Shown here one piece after another: positions 1-4,982 of a stretch of 4,982 nucleotides of DNA. Origin of the DNA: a virus (Duplodnaviria; Heunggongvirae; Uroviricota; Caudoviricetes); the IMG/VR virus record IMGVR_UViG_3300029499_000043. One strand, written 5' to 3'. The notes under the pieces were generated by a model that was not told the DNA's origin, did no database searches, and was given only the letters and a program-made list of their open reading frames with translations. A program made the position numbers and the translations under genes. Numbering within the stretch: the first letter of the stretch is position 1; each line of letters starts with the position of its first letter.

Positions 1-101
1 GTCGGCGAAGGTAAGTTGATGACTCATGATGAACCCTGTTCCATGGCTCCAGATGACAAACATGATCTCATATCAGGGACTTGTTCGCACCTTCCCTAAC
101 A

Positions 102-503
102 TTATCCCTGATAAAATGCCAGTATGCGCTGCATAACTTCACTCATCCGGCACTCGCGACAGATTATGTTTAGGCGACTGTCGTAGCGACGTATTTCTCC
201 ATCAGGTAACGACCAGATAAGGTCTGGATCAACCACAGCTGTTTTCTTCACCTTTGCCCTCGAGAGTTTTTTGCGGGCGTTTTGCCAGTCCTTACGCGCC
301 TGTTCAGACGGGAATAACCCGTAGCCGGAGTTGTATACATCGCCACTGGCTACCAGCTCTCTGGCAAGAACGCTCATCAGATATCTAGTCGCACCTGTTT
401 TAGCTTCCAGTTGCCGTAACGTCTCACGACCGCTCTGGCGCACGAGTTCCACCACCTGCCCTTTAATTTTTTCCCGCTCTTCTTGTGTAAAAACTTTTGC
501 CAC
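102..503 (-). CDS. Hypothetical prophage protein, 133 aa, basic; last gene of the replication module. Function not recognised.
   Basis: Intact ORF in the track. The start codon is GTG at 503..501, preceded by a strong Shine-Dalgarno (AAGGGGGA, about 3-4 nt upstream). It lies 40 bp downstream of the replication gene on the same strand. No motif I can name. Confidence 0.55.
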   Translation of the reverse strand: MAKVFTQEEREKIKGQVVELVRQSGRETLRQLEAKTGATRYLMSVLARELVASGDVYNSGYGLFPSEQARKDWQNARKKLSRAKVKKTAVVDPDLIWSLPDGEIRRYDSRLNIICRECRMSEVMQRILAFYQG

Positions 504-543: not shown

Positions 544-1509
544 TTATCCTCTGAAACCAGGCGGAATTTCTGTATCCGGTTCAGAAATATGATTAACACA
601 ACGCTGTACAGGTGAACGCCCCAGGCGGATGACCAGTTCGTCCCATTTTTCGCGGAGCTTTGACGGGCTCATGATGTTTTTTACCCAGAATGGATCCCGC
701 TGTACCCGACCAAACATTTCACAAATTTGTCTGTGGCTTCTGCCATCCAGCATCCGCATTGTGCGCACATCATTGGCCCAGACAGTCCAGTTAGGCTCTT
801 TTGGTCGCATGATCTCGCCATCATCACTGGCGGCCTGTTCGTAGAGACCCACGATCCGCCCCCATATCCACTGCGCACACGCCAGATCCTCCTGGCTACC
901 CCACTGGCGTTTTTTCGCACTAAACACAACTGCGCCAGGGTGCCGGATTAAAAAATCCTGTTCAGCCGTCTGCGGGTCCGGTTGCGAAGCTTCCGGACGA
1001 AAAGTGTTTTTATTCTCTGTAGTAATCTCTGTTGTATTCTCTGTAGGATCATCGGGCCATTTTGACCCGATGACATTGGGTCGTTTTGAACCAATGGAGC
1101 GTTTCATTTTGACCTCTTCCATCGTGTCATTTTGACCTGATGGAGCGGCGCATTTTGAACCGATGGATTCGCTCAATTTGCCATCATCTAAAAGCTCGCT
1201 TCCATAGTTAATCGTGTAGAAATTGGTCATATCGCGCTTTGATTTATTGAGCTTTTCACAACGCAAAAGCCCCAGCGTTTTCAGACTTGCAAACGCGCGC
1301 TTTAACGTTGACTCTGACCAGAATGGGAACTGTTCCAGCCATTGTTCCGTTGTGTTGTAAATCCAGCGAACACCATCACATTCCATGCCGGAATTGGTAT
1401 CTCTCAACCAGTAATGCAACTGCTGCAACACAATGGCTTCATTTAAGCCAATCTTCATCGCAAGCTGTGTGTTTATAACCAGTGGGCGTTCAGCAAAAAG
1501 AAGGCTCAT
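544..1509 (-). CDS. Phage replication initiation protein (lambda O-like / replisome organiser), with an N-terminal helix-turn-helix region and an internal iteron-encoded linker. The track ORF starts at TTG 1563; the more likely start is ATG at 1509..1507 (MSLLFAERPLVINTQLAMKIGLNEAIV...).
   Basis: 339-codon ORF in the track. The N-terminal segment resembles the DNA-binding domain of phage replication initiators/replisome organisers. The gene contains five direct repeats (iterons) and an AT-rich repeat block, as the lambda O gene contains ori-lambda. It sits immediately downstream of the cII-like gene, the canonical lambdoid position for O. Confidence 0.75.
   Translation of the reverse strand: MSLLFAERPLVINTQLAMKIGLNEAIVLQQLHYWLRDTNSGMECDGVRWIYNTTEQWLEQFPFWSESTLKRAFASLKTLGLLRCEKLNKSKRDMTNFYTINYGSELLDDGKLSESIGSKCAAPSGQNDTMEEVKMKRSIGSKRPNVIGSKWPDDPTENTTEITTENKNTFRPEASQPDPQTAEQDFLIRHPGAVVFSAKKRQWGSQEDLACAQWIWGRIVGLYEQAASDDGEIMRPKEPNWTVWANDVRTMRMLDGRSHRQICEMFGRVQRDPFWVKNIMSPSKLREKWDELVIRLGRSPVQRCVNHISEPDTEIPPGFRG
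1011..1047. repeat. Three tandem 12-bp repeats (TATTCTCTGTAG / TAATCTCTGTTG / TATTCTCTGTAG) in an AT-rich tract next to the iterons. Candidate DNA-unwinding or accessory-factor element of the origin.
   Basis: Read directly from the sequence. Encodes the repetitive peptide TENTTEITTEN in the initiator linker. Its position relative to the iterons mirrors the iteron plus AT-rich layout of ori-lambda. Confidence 0.45.
1058..1172. repeat. Five iteron-like direct repeats (candidate origin of replication) embedded in the replication-initiator coding sequence. Consensus on the + strand is CATTTTGA(A)CC-N-GATGG.
   Basis: TTTTGA cores begin at 1060, 1084, 1107, 1130 and 1154, giving a regular 23-24 bp spacing. 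On the coding (minus) strand they translate to the repeated peptide motif SIGSK / IGSK. A sixth degenerate copy may lie at about 1173-1188. Confidence 0.6.
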
Positions 1510-2011
1510 AATTCCATCCAGCTTTTTGTTGGTATTGCTGTCGATACGCAAGTTTGAAAGCAATTGCTTTTTCTATAAGTTCGTCAGTTTCACGATCCAC
1601 TACGGCAGGATCAGCAAAAAGCAGTCCGGACTCCACCACATCGCCATATTCTTTGTTTAACCCGGCGATCATGTACGTGATGCTTTTTCCGTCACTAATT
1701 TCACGATACAACCTGAAATCATTAATCCGGATAGCCTCCATAATTGCAGGCACTAGCGCCGTGAACTTTTCACGCTTATCCCTGGTGTCGATAGCCTTCC
1801 AGCGTTCGAATATCTTCACTCGATTAACGCCAAGCGCTCGCTGATCAACCGCGCCACCTTCATCTGTGACACGCTGAACATCGATGTTCGGGCGCTCTTT
1901 CAAAGCCCAGAATGCTTCAGTGATTAATATCGTCGCCTGCTCCTGTGTCATTCCTGGTCGACATATCCAGGCATCCAGAGCCTCACGAGCCTGTTCAGGA
2001 GTGATTTTCAT
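1490..2011 (-). CDS. YdaT-like (CII-like) prophage regulator, 173 aa. Likely corresponds to the full-length form of the ydfX region of Qin.
   Basis: ATG start at 2011..2009; intact ORF. It lies directly downstream of the cro-like gene on the same strand, in the cI-cro-cII order. The 3' end overlaps the replication gene start by about 20 nt and the 5' end overlaps the dicC-like stop by 17 nt. The YdaT family assignment is from recollection of the protein family, not a search. Confidence 0.7.
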   Translation of the reverse strand: MKITPEQAREALDAWICRPGMTQEQATILITEAFWALKERPNIDVQRVTDEGGAVDQRALGVNRVKIFERWKAIDTRDKREKFTALVPAIMEAIRINDFRLYREISDGKSITYMIAGLNKEYGDVVESGLLFADPAVVDRETDELIEKAIAFKLAYRQQYQQKAGWNYEPSFC

Positions 2012-2222
2012 TGTTCAACCGCCCCGCCCGCTTCGTCTTACGATATTCGTCATAAACCTTGGGATCATACAGAAGCTCGCCGCCAGATGCCTCCTGTAGA
2101 CGCATCGCGCGACCTTCAGGAACCAGCTCTTGCCATTGAGAAACAGCAGATGGGTCAACGCCAGCAGCTTTCGCTACTTTGGCTTTCGTACCGTAAAAAT
2201 TAATTACGTCTGATTTAAACAT
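1995..2222 (-). CDS. dicC: Cro-like small DNA-binding regulator (DicC/YdaS family), 75 aa from ATG 2222 (MFKSDVINFYGTKAKVAKAAG...). The track ORF begins at an upstream TTG at 2249.
   Basis: Shine-Dalgarno GGAGG about 4 nt upstream of ATG 2222 on the minus strand. Divergent from the repressor gene. The C-terminal segment (LVPEGRAMRLQEASGGEL...YDPKVY...NNENHS) matches my recollection of DicC. Size about 76 aa, as for DicC. Confidence 0.75.
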   Translation of the reverse strand: MFKSDVINFYGTKAKVAKAAGVDPSAVSQWQELVPEGRAMRLQEASGGELLYDPKVYDEYRKTKRAGRLNNENHS

Positions 2223-2299: not shown

Positions 2300-2707
2300 A
2301 TGAACGAGAAAACTTTAGGTCAACGCATTAGAGAAAGACGTAAGCAGGTAGGTTTAAGTCAAAACGGTTTAAGCAAAGCTGCTGGCGTATCTGGCTCATC
2401 AATTTCATTATGGGAAAGTGACCATACAGCCCCGCGCGGGCAAAATTTGCATCGCCTCGCCGAGGTATTGCAATGTTCACCAACCTGGATACTGTTTGGC
2501 GACGAGGACAAAACACCAGCTCCCCCTGTTTCACTCGATAGTGCCTTAGACTTATCGGAAGATGAGTTAGAGATGCTGCGTTTGTATCGCGCACTTCCTA
2601 AATCAGAGCAACAAGCACAACTCAGCGAACTCCGCGCCCGCGTTGAGAATTTTAATCGCCTGTTCACCGAGCTATTAGAGGCTCGCAAACGCAACAAGCA
2701 TCAATAA
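2300..2707 (+). CDS. dicA: DicA-like HTH (XRE-family) prophage repressor, 135 aa from ATG 2300 (MNEKTLGQRIRERRK...). An alternative upstream ATG at 2249 would give 152 aa.
   Basis: The N-terminal region has a clear helix-turn-helix signature (QRIRERRKQVGLSQNGLSKAAGVSGSSISLWESD). The VLQCSPTWILFGDEDK segment and the C-terminal region match my recollection of DicA. The 135-aa length equals that of DicA. No strong Shine-Dalgarno for either start, so the start is uncertain (possibly a leaderless or short-leader transcript, as for cI). Confidence 0.8.
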   Translation: MNEKTLGQRIRERRKQVGLSQNGLSKAAGVSGSSISLWESDHTAPRGQNLHRLAEVLQCSPTWILFGDEDKTPAPPVSLDSALDLSEDELEMLRLYRALPKSEQQAQLSELRARVENFNRLFTELLEARKRNKHQ

Positions 2708-2899: not shown

Positions 2900-3055
2900 A
2901 TGGATACTATCGATCTTGGCAACAACGAATCTCTGGTGTACGGCGTGTTTCCAAACCAGGACGGCACGTTCACCGCAATGACGTATACCAAAAGCAAAAC
3001 GTTTAAAACCGAAAATGGTGCCCGTCGCTGGCTGGAAAGAAACTCAGGTGAGTGA
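2900..3055 (+). CDS. ydfA: YdfA/YdaF-family small prophage protein (DUF1391-like), 51 aa (MDTIDLGNNESLVYGVFPNQDGTFTAMTYTKSKTFKTENGARRWLERNSGE).
   Basis: Internal ATG of track ORF 2744..3055. Shine-Dalgarno GAGG at 2891..2894, 5 nt upstream. The 51-aa size and sequence match my recollection of the YdfA/YdaF family. First gene downstream of the repressor on the early-left side. Confidence 0.8.
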   Translation: MDTIDLGNNESLVYGVFPNQDGTFTAMTYTKSKTFKTENGARRWLERNSGE

Positions 3056-3056
3056 T

Positions 3057-3632
3057 ATGGATTTCGACACAATCATGGAAAAGGCTTACGAAGAATACTT
3101 CGAAGGCCTTGCCGAAGGCGAAGAAGCTCTCAGCTTCAGTGAGTTTAAACAGGCACTCAGAATAAGAATGCGCTCTCACAATGACGCGGAGCACAAATAT
3201 GAGAAGCAAAATCAGACCGCAGAAAATTTTGTTCTGGAACCCGGAGAAACGCTTTTCAAAATTCCCGTTACGTGCCCCATTTGCGGTTTTACATCAGAAG
3301 AACTTGACGACTCCTGTAACAATCAGGAAACAACCAAGTATGTCGAAGATGATACCGAGTGCGCACGAAGAACGATTATATCCACGAGTCCAAACTCCAG
3401 GACCAATAAATCTCACTTTGAGAGGGTGATTAATCCACTCCCCCAAACCAATAAAAAAGATGCCGGAGGACAAAAAAACCAATGGAACAACGGGATATCT
3501 GTCAAAAAAAGACGTTCCATTAAAGACAAACAACGCAGCGCCAACAACTGTAAGCGCTTTATACCAGTAATCAATTTTCATGTTCTTAAGCGGATTTATT
3601 GGTGGTTGCGACATTGCTTAATGAATCCTTAA
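3057..3632 (+). CDS. ydfB/ydfC-like early gene(s). One uninterrupted frame from ATG 3057 (MDFDTIMEKAYEEYFEGLAEGEEAL...) with a second in-frame ATG at 3168 (MRSHNDAEHKYEKQ...). The true 3' extent is uncertain: the C-terminal 80 codons are K/N/R-rich low complexity over A-tracts.
   Basis: Shine-Dalgarno AGGTG 6 nt upstream of ATG 3057. The start is 1 nt after the ydfA stop, which suggests coupling. In K-12 this region is annotated as two small genes (ydfB, ydfC), as far as I recall. Here no stop occurs until 3630..3632. The tail contains poly-A runs at 3453..3458, 3472..3478 and 3504..3510. Confidence 0.5.
   Translation: MDFDTIMEKAYEEYFEGLAEGEEALSFSEFKQALRIRMRSHNDAEHKYEKQNQTAENFVLEPGETLFKIPVTCPICGFTSEELDDSCNNQETTKYVEDDTECARRTIISTSPNSRTNKSHFERVINPLPQTNKKDAGGQKNQWNNGISVKKRRSIKDKQRSANNCKRFIPVINFHVLKRIYWWLRHCLMNP
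3294..3614 (-). CDS. Candidate small membrane protein, 106 aa, with three predicted hydrophobic helices, antisense to the 3' part of the ydfB/C-like frame. Possibly a superinfection-exclusion or holin-like protein; possibly an artefact.
   Basis: ATG at 3614..3612 with AAGGA about 11 nt upstream on the minus strand. Hydrophobic segments are ALTVVGAALFVF, VVPLVFLSSGIFFIGLGEWI and ALGIIFDILGCFLIVTGVV. Caveat: an antisense reading of lysine/asparagine-rich A-tracts automatically yields Phe/Leu-rich hydrophobic stretches. Confidence 0.3.
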   Translation of the reverse strand: MSQPPINPLKNMKIDYWYKALTVVGAALFVFNGTSFFDRYPVVPLVFLSSGIFFIGLGEWINHPLKVRFIGPGVWTRGYNRSSCALGIIFDILGCFLIVTGVVKFF

Positions 3633-3891
3633 AACTGTGGTGATTTTAAGGATACCACCTCGCCTGACGTGGTTAAAAGCAGGCACACAACACGAAAGCG
3701 CACGGCGAAGTTCGTCTCACTGTACGGTGTCGTCAAATTTAATTCGACCGTGCGCTTCCGGTTGTGGCAACCCGCGAAATGGCGCGGCGGTAAGTATGGC
3801 GGGGTTATTCCTTCCCCGTTGAGGACACCGAGTTGTCAGGTTGACCATACGCTTAAGCGACAACCCCGCTGCAACGCCCTCTGTTATCAAT

Positions 3892-3949
3892 TTTCTGGTG
3901 ACGTTTGGCGGTATCAGTTTTACTCCGTGACTGCTCTGCCGCCGTTTTT
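3892..3949 (+). ncRNA. dicF: DicF small regulatory RNA (Hfq-dependent antisense inhibitor of ftsZ translation), including its intrinsic terminator: stem GGCGG 3907..3911 with CCGCC 3939..3943, then T-tract 3945..3949.
   Basis: The sequence TTTCTGGTGACGTTTGGCGGTATCAGTTTTACTCCGTGACTGCTCTGCCGCC followed by TTTTT matches the roughly 53-nt DicF RNA as I recall it, almost base for base. It lies in an ORF-free stretch immediately upstream of dicB, as in Qin. Confidence 0.85.
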
Positions 3950-4118
3950 AAAGTGAATTTTGTGATGCGGTGAATGCGGCTAAGCGCACGCGGAACAGTT
4001 AAAACCAAAAACAGTGTTATGGGTGGATTCTCTGTATCCGGCGTTAATTGTTAACTGGTTAACGTCACCTGGAGGCACCAGGCACTGCATCACAAAATTC
4101 ATTGTTGAGGACGCGATA

Positions 4119-4307
4119 ATGAAAACGTTATTACCAAACGTTAATACGTCTGAAGGTTGTTTTGAAATTGGTGTCACTATCAGTAACCCTGTATTTACTG
4201 AAGATGCCATTAACAAGAGAAAACAAGAACGGGAGCTATTAAATAAAATATGCATTGTTTCAATGCTGGCTCGTTTACGTCTGATGCCAAAAGGATGTGC
4301 ACAATGA
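4119..4307 (+). CDS. dicB: DicB cell-division inhibitor (acts with MinC on FtsZ), 62 aa (MKTLLPNVNTSEGCFEIGVTISNPVFTEDAINKRKQERELLNKICIVSMLARLRLMPKGCAQ).
   Basis: Strong Shine-Dalgarno GAGGA at 4107..4111, 7 nt upstream of ATG 4119. The 62-aa length and sequence match my recollection of DicB. Located downstream of DicF. Confidence 0.9.
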   Translation: MKTLLPNVNTSEGCFEIGVTISNPVFTEDAINKRKQERELLNKICIVSMLARLRLMPKGCAQ

Positions 4308-4588: not shown

Positions 4589-4982
4589 ATGAGTAAAGTC
4601 TTTATTTGCGCCGCTATTCCTGACGAACTGGCAACAAGGGAAGAAGGCGCTGTGGCTGTAGCCACAGCCATTGAAGCTGGCGACGAACGCCGTGCTCGAG
4701 CAAAATTTCACTGGCAATTCCTGGAACATTATCCGGCTGCTCAGGACTGCGCTTATAAATTTATTGTCTGCGAGGATAAACCTGGCATACCCCGCCCTGC
4801 CCTCGATTCATGGGATGCTGAATATATGCAGGAAAACCGCTGGGATGAGGAGTCTGCTTCTTTTGTCCCGGTTGAGACTGAATCCGATCCGATGAACGTC
4901 ACTTTTGACAAGCTGGCCCCTGAAGTACAGAACGCTGTCATGGTTAAGTTCGACACATGTGAAAACATCACCGTTGATATGG
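4589..4982 (+). CDS. ydfE: YdfE-like acidic protein, 3'-partial: 131 codons to the window edge with no stop (MSKVFICAAIPDELATREEGAVAVATAIEAGDERRARAKFHWQFLEHY...). Possibly the N-terminal region of a RecE-type exonuclease-family protein.
   Basis: ATG 4589 with Shine-Dalgarno GAGG at 4575..4578 (about 10 nt upstream). The open frame runs to 4981 without a stop, so it is absent from the supplied ORF track. Position after ydfD as in Qin. Identity from recollection only. Confidence 0.7.
   Translation, partial: MSKVFICAAIPDELATREEGAVAVATAIEAGDERRARAKFHWQFLEHYPAAQDCAYKFIVCEDKPGIPRPALDSWDAEYMQENRWDEESASFVPVETESDPMNVTFDKLAPEVQNAVMVKFDTCENITVDM

Follow-up and report, generated by a model that had tools for sequence, protein, structure and literature searches.

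An intact dicF small RNA gene in the dicBF operon of a Qin-type lambdoid prophage

The viral DNA record IMGVR_UViG_3300029499_000043 (IMG/VR; Caudoviricetes), whose full 4,982 nucleotides (nt) are referred to here as the window, carries at 3892-3944 on its plus strand a copy of dicF, the gene of the 53-nt DicF small RNA (sRNA). There is very good reason to regard this copy as a functional allele, encoding an Hfq-dependent base-pairing sRNA of the dicBF operon in a Qin-type lambdoid prophage located beside rspB. Sequence identity, the anatomy of the operon, predicted structures and predicted base pairing, all obtained for the window itself, carry this reading. DicF, a well-studied prophage sRNA that silences ftsZ and so blocks E. 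coli cell division, has been known since 1989-1990, and its targets, processing and regulation have been worked out in detail; the window copy is therefore an already known element and nothing about it is new. Its use is as an anchor that fixes the strand and the identity of the early-left (dicBF) operon in a Qin-type prophage. The features that define the gene are as follows:

3892-3944, plus strand: dicF, 53-nt sRNA (RF00039; 52/53 nt against K-12 b1574)
3907-3949, plus strand: DicF intrinsic terminator, hairpin 3907-3943 with U5 at 3945-3949 (RNAfold, Rfam consensus)
3915-3943, plus strand: DicF nt 24-52, predicted ftsZ-pairing part (RNAduplex, -28.3 kcal/mol versus -27.9 for K-12)

The 53-nt gene reads TTTCTGGTGACGTTTGGCGGTATCAGTTTTACTCCGTGACTGCTCTGCCGCCG and is followed directly by TTTTT. 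When both strands of the whole window were scanned with all 4227 Rfam families (cmscan), DicF (RF00039) was the sole family above threshold, matching 3893-3944 over model positions 1-52 of 52 with 72.5 bits (E 3.8e-15; gathering score, 48 bits). Base-by-base comparison with dicF of Escherichia coli K-12 MG1655 (b1574, NC_000913.3 1649382-1649434, Qin region) identified a single difference, the C of K-12 at nt 53 being G here (C53G, window 3944). This last base ahead of the U-tail belongs neither to the terminator stem nor to the predicted ftsZ pairing; in Rfam the K-12 allele reaches 76.7 bits. Nucleotides 1-52, and with them the 5' seed used for regulation of xylR, pykA and manX, are identical to those of K-12. 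Given the E-value and the identity to an experimentally characterised gene, a chance match is excluded.

The predicted fold of the RNA has the same structure as the Rfam consensus. Its 3' hairpin has a minimum free energy (MFE) of -16.6 kcal/mol (z -2.1), its stem is invariant across eight distinct DicF loci, and nt 1-15 are left single-stranded. The window copy thus encodes about 53 nt of RNA with a GC-rich hairpin and a U-tract at the 3' end, the shape of a Rho-independent terminator. A simple terminator scanner gave no hit on the DicF hairpin because the loop is larger than the 8 nt that the scanner allows, and its miss is therefore not evidence against a terminator.

Nucleotides 24-52 of DicF are predicted to pair with positions -28 to -1 of the K-12 ftsZ leader, covering the ribosome binding site with its Shine-Dalgarno region (RNAduplex). 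The duplex energy is -38.9 kcal/mol for the window allele versus -38.5 for K-12, nt 53 is unpaired with both alleles, and the pairing region shows no mismatch relative to K-12. The initial annotation had reported a near-canonical DicF at 3892-3949, and it is borne out in its exact coordinates, in the covariance-model score, in the comparison with K-12 dicF and in the ftsZ-pairing region. Of 5426 complete E. coli genomes, 5389 carry the ftsZ leader (-80 to +30) unchanged (100% identity); thus, the target is present in any plausible host. Experiments in K-12 have shown that DicF uses its 3' region to pair with the ribosome binding site of ftsZ, that its 5' end is needed for xylR and pykA regulation, and that DicF alone causes filamentation (PMC5069750). 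By analogy with that work, the window allele would bind Hfq, repress ftsZ translation and cause filamentation.

The genes around dicF follow the order of the K-12 dicBF locus, with a DicC-like Cro gene on the minus strand and then, on the plus strand, a DicA-like repressor gene, ydfA, a ydfB-like start, dicF, dicB, ydfD and an exonuclease gene. The first of the dicB codons lies 175 nt 3' of dicF on the same strand, and the DicB protein is identical to that of K-12 at 62 of 62 residues (PF05358, 136.8 bits versus a cut-off of 27). The initial annotation had concluded from DicF that this is a dicB-type cell-division-inhibition operon and had used it to orient the rest of the locus; the DicB match, the gene order and the shared strand of dicF and dicB agree with both statements. 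The locus is a classic dicBF operon of known orientation in a Qin-type lambdoid prophage, and window 3892-3944 is a normal, intact dicF copy in its usual place ahead of dicB. The protein-coding genes of the window, apart from one antisense gene treated below, are:

102-503, minus strand: DUF977 gene
544-1509, minus strand: O-like replication initiator
1490-2011, minus strand: YdaT-family gene
1995-2222, minus strand: DicC-like Cro, 75 amino acids (aa); 70% identical to K-12 DicC; Pfam P22_Cro
2300-2707, plus strand: DicA-like helix-turn-helix repressor, 135 aa, presumed repressor of dicBp; 57% identical to K-12 DicA over 127 aa; Pfam HTH_3
2900-3055, plus strand: ydfA (DUF1391), first operon gene; PF07151, 98.5 bits; identical to K-12 in the alignment
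3057-3159, plus strand: ydfB-like start; first ~34 codons match K-12 ydfB; phrog_2061 on residues 1-34 only
4119-4307, plus strand: dicB, cell-division inhibitor, 62 aa; PF05358; RefSeq WP_000854559.1
4304-4495, plus strand: ydfD, lysis protein, 63 aa; 61/63 against K-12 YdfD; Pfam DUF1482
4589-4982, plus strand: exonuclease gene (YdfE/RecE-like), 5' part, cut by the window end; RefSeq annotation of the identical SCU-482 locus

Over all 4,982 nt, the window shows no difference from the chromosomes of E. coli SCU-482 and GN05505 (100% identity), and its identity to the isolated phage HannyBb is 98.6%; 802 complete E. coli genomes cover 80% or more of it. In SCU-482 the locus belongs to a lambdoid prophage inserted beside rspB, the site of Qin in K-12. 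The prophage has a much fuller gene set than Qin, comprising an integrase, an excisionase, a 2.5-kb exonuclease gene, an O-like replication gene, a lysis cassette, a Q-like antiterminator, genes for terminase, portal and capsid, rem and hokD. The locus is thus not a K-12-like cryptic remnant but part of a much more complete lambdoid prophage. Window positions 1-94 are the end of a copy of the insertion sequence IS5 that abuts the replication module (genomes without the insertion match from 95 on), and the IS5 transposase gene in SCU-482 ends at window position 27.

Similarity to K-12 is mosaic. The leader from about 2831, ydfA and the first ~34 ydfB codons are essentially identical to K-12, the promoter-operator region, repressor and Cro have diverged, and the end of ydfB together with ydfC is swapped for unrelated DNA at about 3160-3743. 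Near-identity to Qin restarts abruptly at 3744 and runs through dicB, with 5 substitutions in the 376 nt of 3744-4119 (98.7% identical) and 3 differing positions in 3744-3944. In K-12, processing of the dicBp transcript yields DicF, ribonuclease (RNase) III giving a 190-nt species and RNase E the 53-nt form; no internal promoter was found, and the operon yields a ydfABC-dicF transcript plus a longer read-through transcript (PMC10448788). A 190-nt RNA with its end at 3944 would have its 5' end at 3755, which is 11 nt inside the conserved block:

3755-3891, plus strand: upstream part of the putative 190-nt DicF precursor, 5' end deduced from the published 190-nt RNase III species

The mosaic junction at 3744 thus appears to coincide with an RNA-processing unit, and since the block is conserved from this point, the unit preserved by recombination would be the processing substrate with dicF and the dicB leader. 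The predicted fold of the 190-nt precursor is not separable from shuffles (z -1.03), so that the RNase III site near 3755 is placed from the published length and from conservation only. The bases at 3890-3894 (AU/UUU) would suit the preference of RNase E for AU-rich single strands. Processing by RNase III to 190 nt and by RNase E to 53 nt at the window locus is expected by analogy with K-12.

The precursor and DicF are also spanned by a plus-strand open reading frame (ORF) of 95 aa at 3669-3956, which matches phrog_8854 at 95.5 bits, and phage HannyBb has 'hypothetical protein' coding sequences (CDSs) over this stretch, one of them overlapping dicF. That the DicF match lies inside a real protein-coding ORF, either this one or the short CDSs of phage records, nevertheless has a negligible likelihood. 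The copies of S. flexneri and vB_EcoS-640R1 have single-nucleotide indels that destroy the frame while the nucleotides stay almost invariant, which rules out ORF 3669-3956 as a coding sequence across DicF. The curated K-12 record annotates nothing there but dicF, and PHROG families inherit the output of gene callers; phrog_8854 (DicF precursor ORFs) and phrog_24763 (N-terminally extended dicB) are probably gene-caller artefacts.

The region between dicF and dicB is itself highly structured. The 181-nt stretch that runs from the U-tract up to the dicB start has an MFE of -65.5 kcal/mol (z -5.76), and none of 200 shuffles was as stable. An outer helix of 28 pairs joins 3945-3972 with 4083-4111 and encloses four hairpins:

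3945-4111, plus strand: structured dicF-dicB intergenic leader (MFE -65.5 kcal/mol, z -5.76)

Across the eight distinct DicF loci, 99.1% of helix cells are paired, and variation at 3968/4087 and 3969/4086 is confined to changes between C-G and U-G and between G-U and G-C. A double compensatory change was not found in the helix among these eight distinct sequences, and column shuffles give no separation. The structure is thus well supported by energy and consistent with the observed variation, while covariation provides no proof of it. An alternative 72-nt DicF is made by RNase III (cited in PMC5069750), and its 3' end maps to 3963, in the middle of the 28-pair helix. The helix is probably the RNase III substrate that gives this 3' end.

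The same region resembles a known sRNA family. STnc100 (RF02076) matches 3942-4151 over its full length with 34.5 bits (E 6.5e-5), below its gathering score of 47, and similar matches (34.4-38.8 bits) occur in six of ten other loci scanned, K-12 Qin among them. Like the dicF-dicB element, the STnc100/PasD family has a CACCnGGAGGCACCnGGCAC hairpin and an enclosing long helix. Genuine STnc100 copies, however, stand downstream of stx2B in the late region of Shiga toxin (Stx) phages (a consensus-like copy is found in the Stx2a phage F451) and not in an early-left operon. The element was therefore rejected as a member of STnc100, its score being sub-threshold and its genomic context different, and the likeness is a resemblance only. 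The leader, bounded by presumed RNase III cuts, might nonetheless be a functional relative of the STnc100/PasD sRNAs.

Such an arrangement of terminator, processing sites and structured leader raises the question of whether the element serves mainly as operon punctuation, gating the toxic dicB-ydfD genes in the early-left operon and releasing the sRNA as a minor by-product. The hairpin with U5 has a bona fide terminator shape and stands 175 nt ahead of dicB, both the ydfABC-dicF and the longer read-through transcripts are made in K-12, and the block from DicF to dicB is conserved as one unit across varied prophage backgrounds. Punctuation is compatible with an sRNA role, however, and does not exclude it. 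The single-stranded nt 1-15 have no terminator function and yet are invariant in nine loci, the DicF 5' region is experimentally required for xylR and pykA regulation, the ftsZ complementarity of ~29 nt far exceeds the needs of a terminator, and DicF alone suffices for filamentation in K-12. A mainly punctuating role is thus unlikely, and a functional dicF allele is the preferred reading.

Transcription of this allele would start from a dicBp-like promoter. A promoter scan identified a sigma-70-like consensus match, TTGACG-17 nt-TAAATT, at 2795-2823 on the plus strand; its TTGAC aligns in register with K-12 dicBp, and K-12 identity begins right after the -10 element, at ~2831. These similarities suggest that 2795-2823 functions as a dicBp-like promoter. 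The divergent dicC-like and dicA-like genes are separated by a perfect palindrome, TTGAGTTTTCTCAA, at 2236-2249, a candidate for an operator of the OR (right operator) type. It occurs again at 2772-2785 with one mismatch (TTGAG-N4-CTCAt) and on the minus strand at 2808-2821 with two mismatches; this pair encloses the -35 element of the dicBp-like promoter and overlaps its -10 element:

2772-2821, no strand assigned: two operator-like palindromes (TTGAG-N4-CTCAA type)

At up to three mismatches, 3 operator-like sites were found versus 0.83 expected, and 10 of 200 shuffles were equally good; the 13-nt exact repeat is stronger evidence for operators than this site count. The layout is the arrangement of left and right operators (OL/OR) expected for a repressor-controlled early-left promoter. 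The DicA-like protein would bind these candidate operators; as it is only 57% identical to DicA, the prophage probably has a different immunity type. In K-12, Rem counteracts the repression of dicBp by DicA, and spontaneous activation is seen in a subpopulation (PMC10448788). The prophage of SCU-482 has an annotated rem gene. A put-like antiterminator RNA in the dicBp leader (2828-2905) was considered and discarded, its fold being no better than shuffles (z +0.54) and the segment having no Rfam match at E<=1.

Between ydfB and the precursor block, the operon holds a gene on the opposite strand:

3294-3614, minus strand: gene of a 106-aa three-helix membrane protein, antisense within the operon, where K-12 has ydfC (homologues, codon positions)

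Yersinia, Herminiimonas, Reinekea and many metagenomes have homologues of 100-111 aa with 34-58% identity. An alignment of 41 sequences shows 13 invariant residues; the shared motifs include IDYWYKA and GLGEWINHPLQ (invariant WYKA and G-x-GEW-x-NHP). Substitutions relative to three relatives fall mostly at third codon positions of the minus-strand gene (35/53, 22/40 and 55/115). These are the first positions of the plus-strand frame; thus, it is the minus-strand gene that is under selection. An AlphaFold2 model (predicted local distance difference test, pLDDT, 85) has three helices and a beta-hairpin. The protein has no match in Pfam, PHROGs, NCBIfam or PADLOC and, with Foldseek, nothing at E<=0.001 in PDB or BFVD; no consensus promoter was seen upstream of the gene on the minus strand. 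The RefSeq annotation has in its place a 191-aa 'hypothetical protein' on the plus strand (WP_000344958.1, phrog_35040; 3057-3632), of which only the first ~34 residues are YdfB-like. Judging from these data, WP_000344958.1 is probably the ydfB start continuing as a shadow ORF of the minus-strand gene, so that a conserved membrane-protein gene is displaced in RefSeq by its own shadow. An AT-rich palindrome, CCTTAAAA-N9-TTTTAAGG, lies at 3628-3652, just upstream of the ATG of the minus-strand gene (3614-3612); it overlaps the stop codon of the plus-strand ORF and may form a weak hairpin in both directions or serve as a regulatory site.

In five other prophages a gene of this type is adjacent to the repressor and reads in the direction opposite to the early-left operon. 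The sieB gene of lambda and P22 likewise encodes a small membrane protein, beside the repressor, inside the early-left operon and oriented against it. The 106-aa gene is like sieB in position and orientation, a likeness that is a lead and not a test; its product resembles no described family in sequence or fold, and its homologues occur outside prophages too. As a real gene lies antisense in the operon, the dicBF precursor must here be transcribed antisense through it. It is conceivable, if rather speculative, that the 106-aa protein is a superinfection-exclusion-type factor expressed in the lysogen and that its expression and that of the division inhibitors are mutually exclusive, through transcriptional interference or RNase III cleavage of sense-antisense RNA, which would give DicF an extra control absent from K-12.

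The same cassette bears on whether dicF is still expressed. With ~580 nt of unrelated DNA and a convergent gene in place of K-12 ydfC, and with IS5 abutting the replication module at window 1-94, dicF could have been cut off from transcription and persist as an intact but silent relic, all the more as no independent promoter was found upstream of dicF, either in K-12 or in the promoter scan of the window. Yet the arrangement is found, at 80% coverage or more, in the 802 complete E. coli genomes and in phage HannyBb (98.6%), and is therefore maintained and transmissible. Moreover, the promoter, operators, precursor block, dicF and dicB carry no disabling changes, and IS5, which lies across the immunity region from them, does not separate dicBp from dicF. 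A silent relic is accordingly quite improbable, and the copy is better regarded as a functional allele.

On the model of the K-12 experiments, transcription, processing, Hfq binding and target repression would proceed as follows. In the lysogen, the DicA-like repressor, bound to the palindromic operators around the dicBp-like promoter, would keep the operon almost silent. Relief of repression, which an antirepressor such as the Rem encoded by the prophage could bring about, would yield a polycistronic RNA from ~2831. Some transcripts would end at the DicF hairpin and U-tract (3907-3949), and others would continue into dicB-ydfD. A cut by RNase III near 3755 would give the 190-nt species, a further RNase III cut in the 3945-3972/4083-4111 duplex would probably give the 72-nt 3' end at ~3963, and RNase E, cutting at the AU-rich AAU/UUUC site (3891/3892), would release the 53-nt DicF. 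Pairing of nt 24-52 with ftsZ mRNA would then cover the ribosome binding site and block FtsZ synthesis, leading to filamentation, and xylR, pykA and manX are expected to be repressed through the K-12-identical 5' end. Independently, DicB translated from the read-through transcript would block Z-ring assembly via MinC.

Several points weigh against this account. DicF expression in this strain is inferred only. The cassette upstream of the precursor differs from that of K-12 and holds an opposite-strand gene, which may reduce or change the read-through that reaches dicF from dicBp. The repressor (57% identity) and the operators are not those of K-12, so induction by Rem is an extrapolation. The C53G change might bear on terminator efficiency or stability, and covariation in the dicF-dicB intergenic structure is limited to one-sided, pair-preserving changes.

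The initial annotation had also mentioned an influence of DicF and DicB on phage susceptibility. For DicB this is correct, the ~100-fold lambda resistance conferred by the induced operon being DicB-dependent and acting via MinC and ManYZ; for DicF it goes too far, as deletion of dicF alone has a minimal effect (PMC6832061). DicF represses manXYZ but is not known to alter phage susceptibility on its own.

The 58-nt DicF query (3892-3949) was found in 3947 of 5426 complete E. coli genomes (73%), with up to seven copies per genome, and the exact 58-nt G53 allele is the best match in 892 records. Further carriers of this allele are E. ruysiae, S. flexneri and phage HannyBb. Apart from two contigs of metagenome-assembled genomes (MAGs), one binned as Veillonella parvula (DicF, 72.6 bits) and the other as Collinsella sp. 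(72.5 bits), a search for an exact 22-nt DicF core gave matches in E. coli, E. ruysiae and S. flexneri only. The Veillonella-bin contig also has the DicF-dicB module, in its enterobacterial form, and both contigs are most likely mis-binned E. coli prophage DNA. The wide, multi-context and multi-copy distribution of dicF has already been published (PMC5069750).

Public records other than that of MG1655 either lack a dicF annotation or place spurious CDSs over the gene. Among the matches listed, the RefSeq (PGAP) E. coli records carry no such annotation, and in HannyBb the gene is overlapped by a 'hypothetical protein' CDS at 5236-5325.

The closest known system is Qin of K-12, whose dicF shares with the window copy the hairpin and U5, the place between ydfABC-type genes and dicB, and the rspB site. 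The window prophage differs from Qin in having G at nt 53, another promoter-operator region, the swap of the ydfC cassette, and a repressor and Cro that are 57% and 70% identical to their K-12 counterparts. It also keeps integrase, excisionase, exonuclease, replication, lysis and head genes, which K-12 Qin has lost. A near-complete prophage and an isolated phage thus carry the same toxic module as the K-12 cryptic remnant. Other lambdoid prophages and phages (PPompW, Stx-phage-associated loci, vB_EcoS-640R1) have the same dicF-intergenic-dicB module in varied immunity regions, with DicF scores of 72.5-76.7 bits, and four dicF copies of O157:H7 are described in the literature. These other lambdoid copies differ from that of the window in flanking cassettes only, and the window dicF is not functionally distinct from them.

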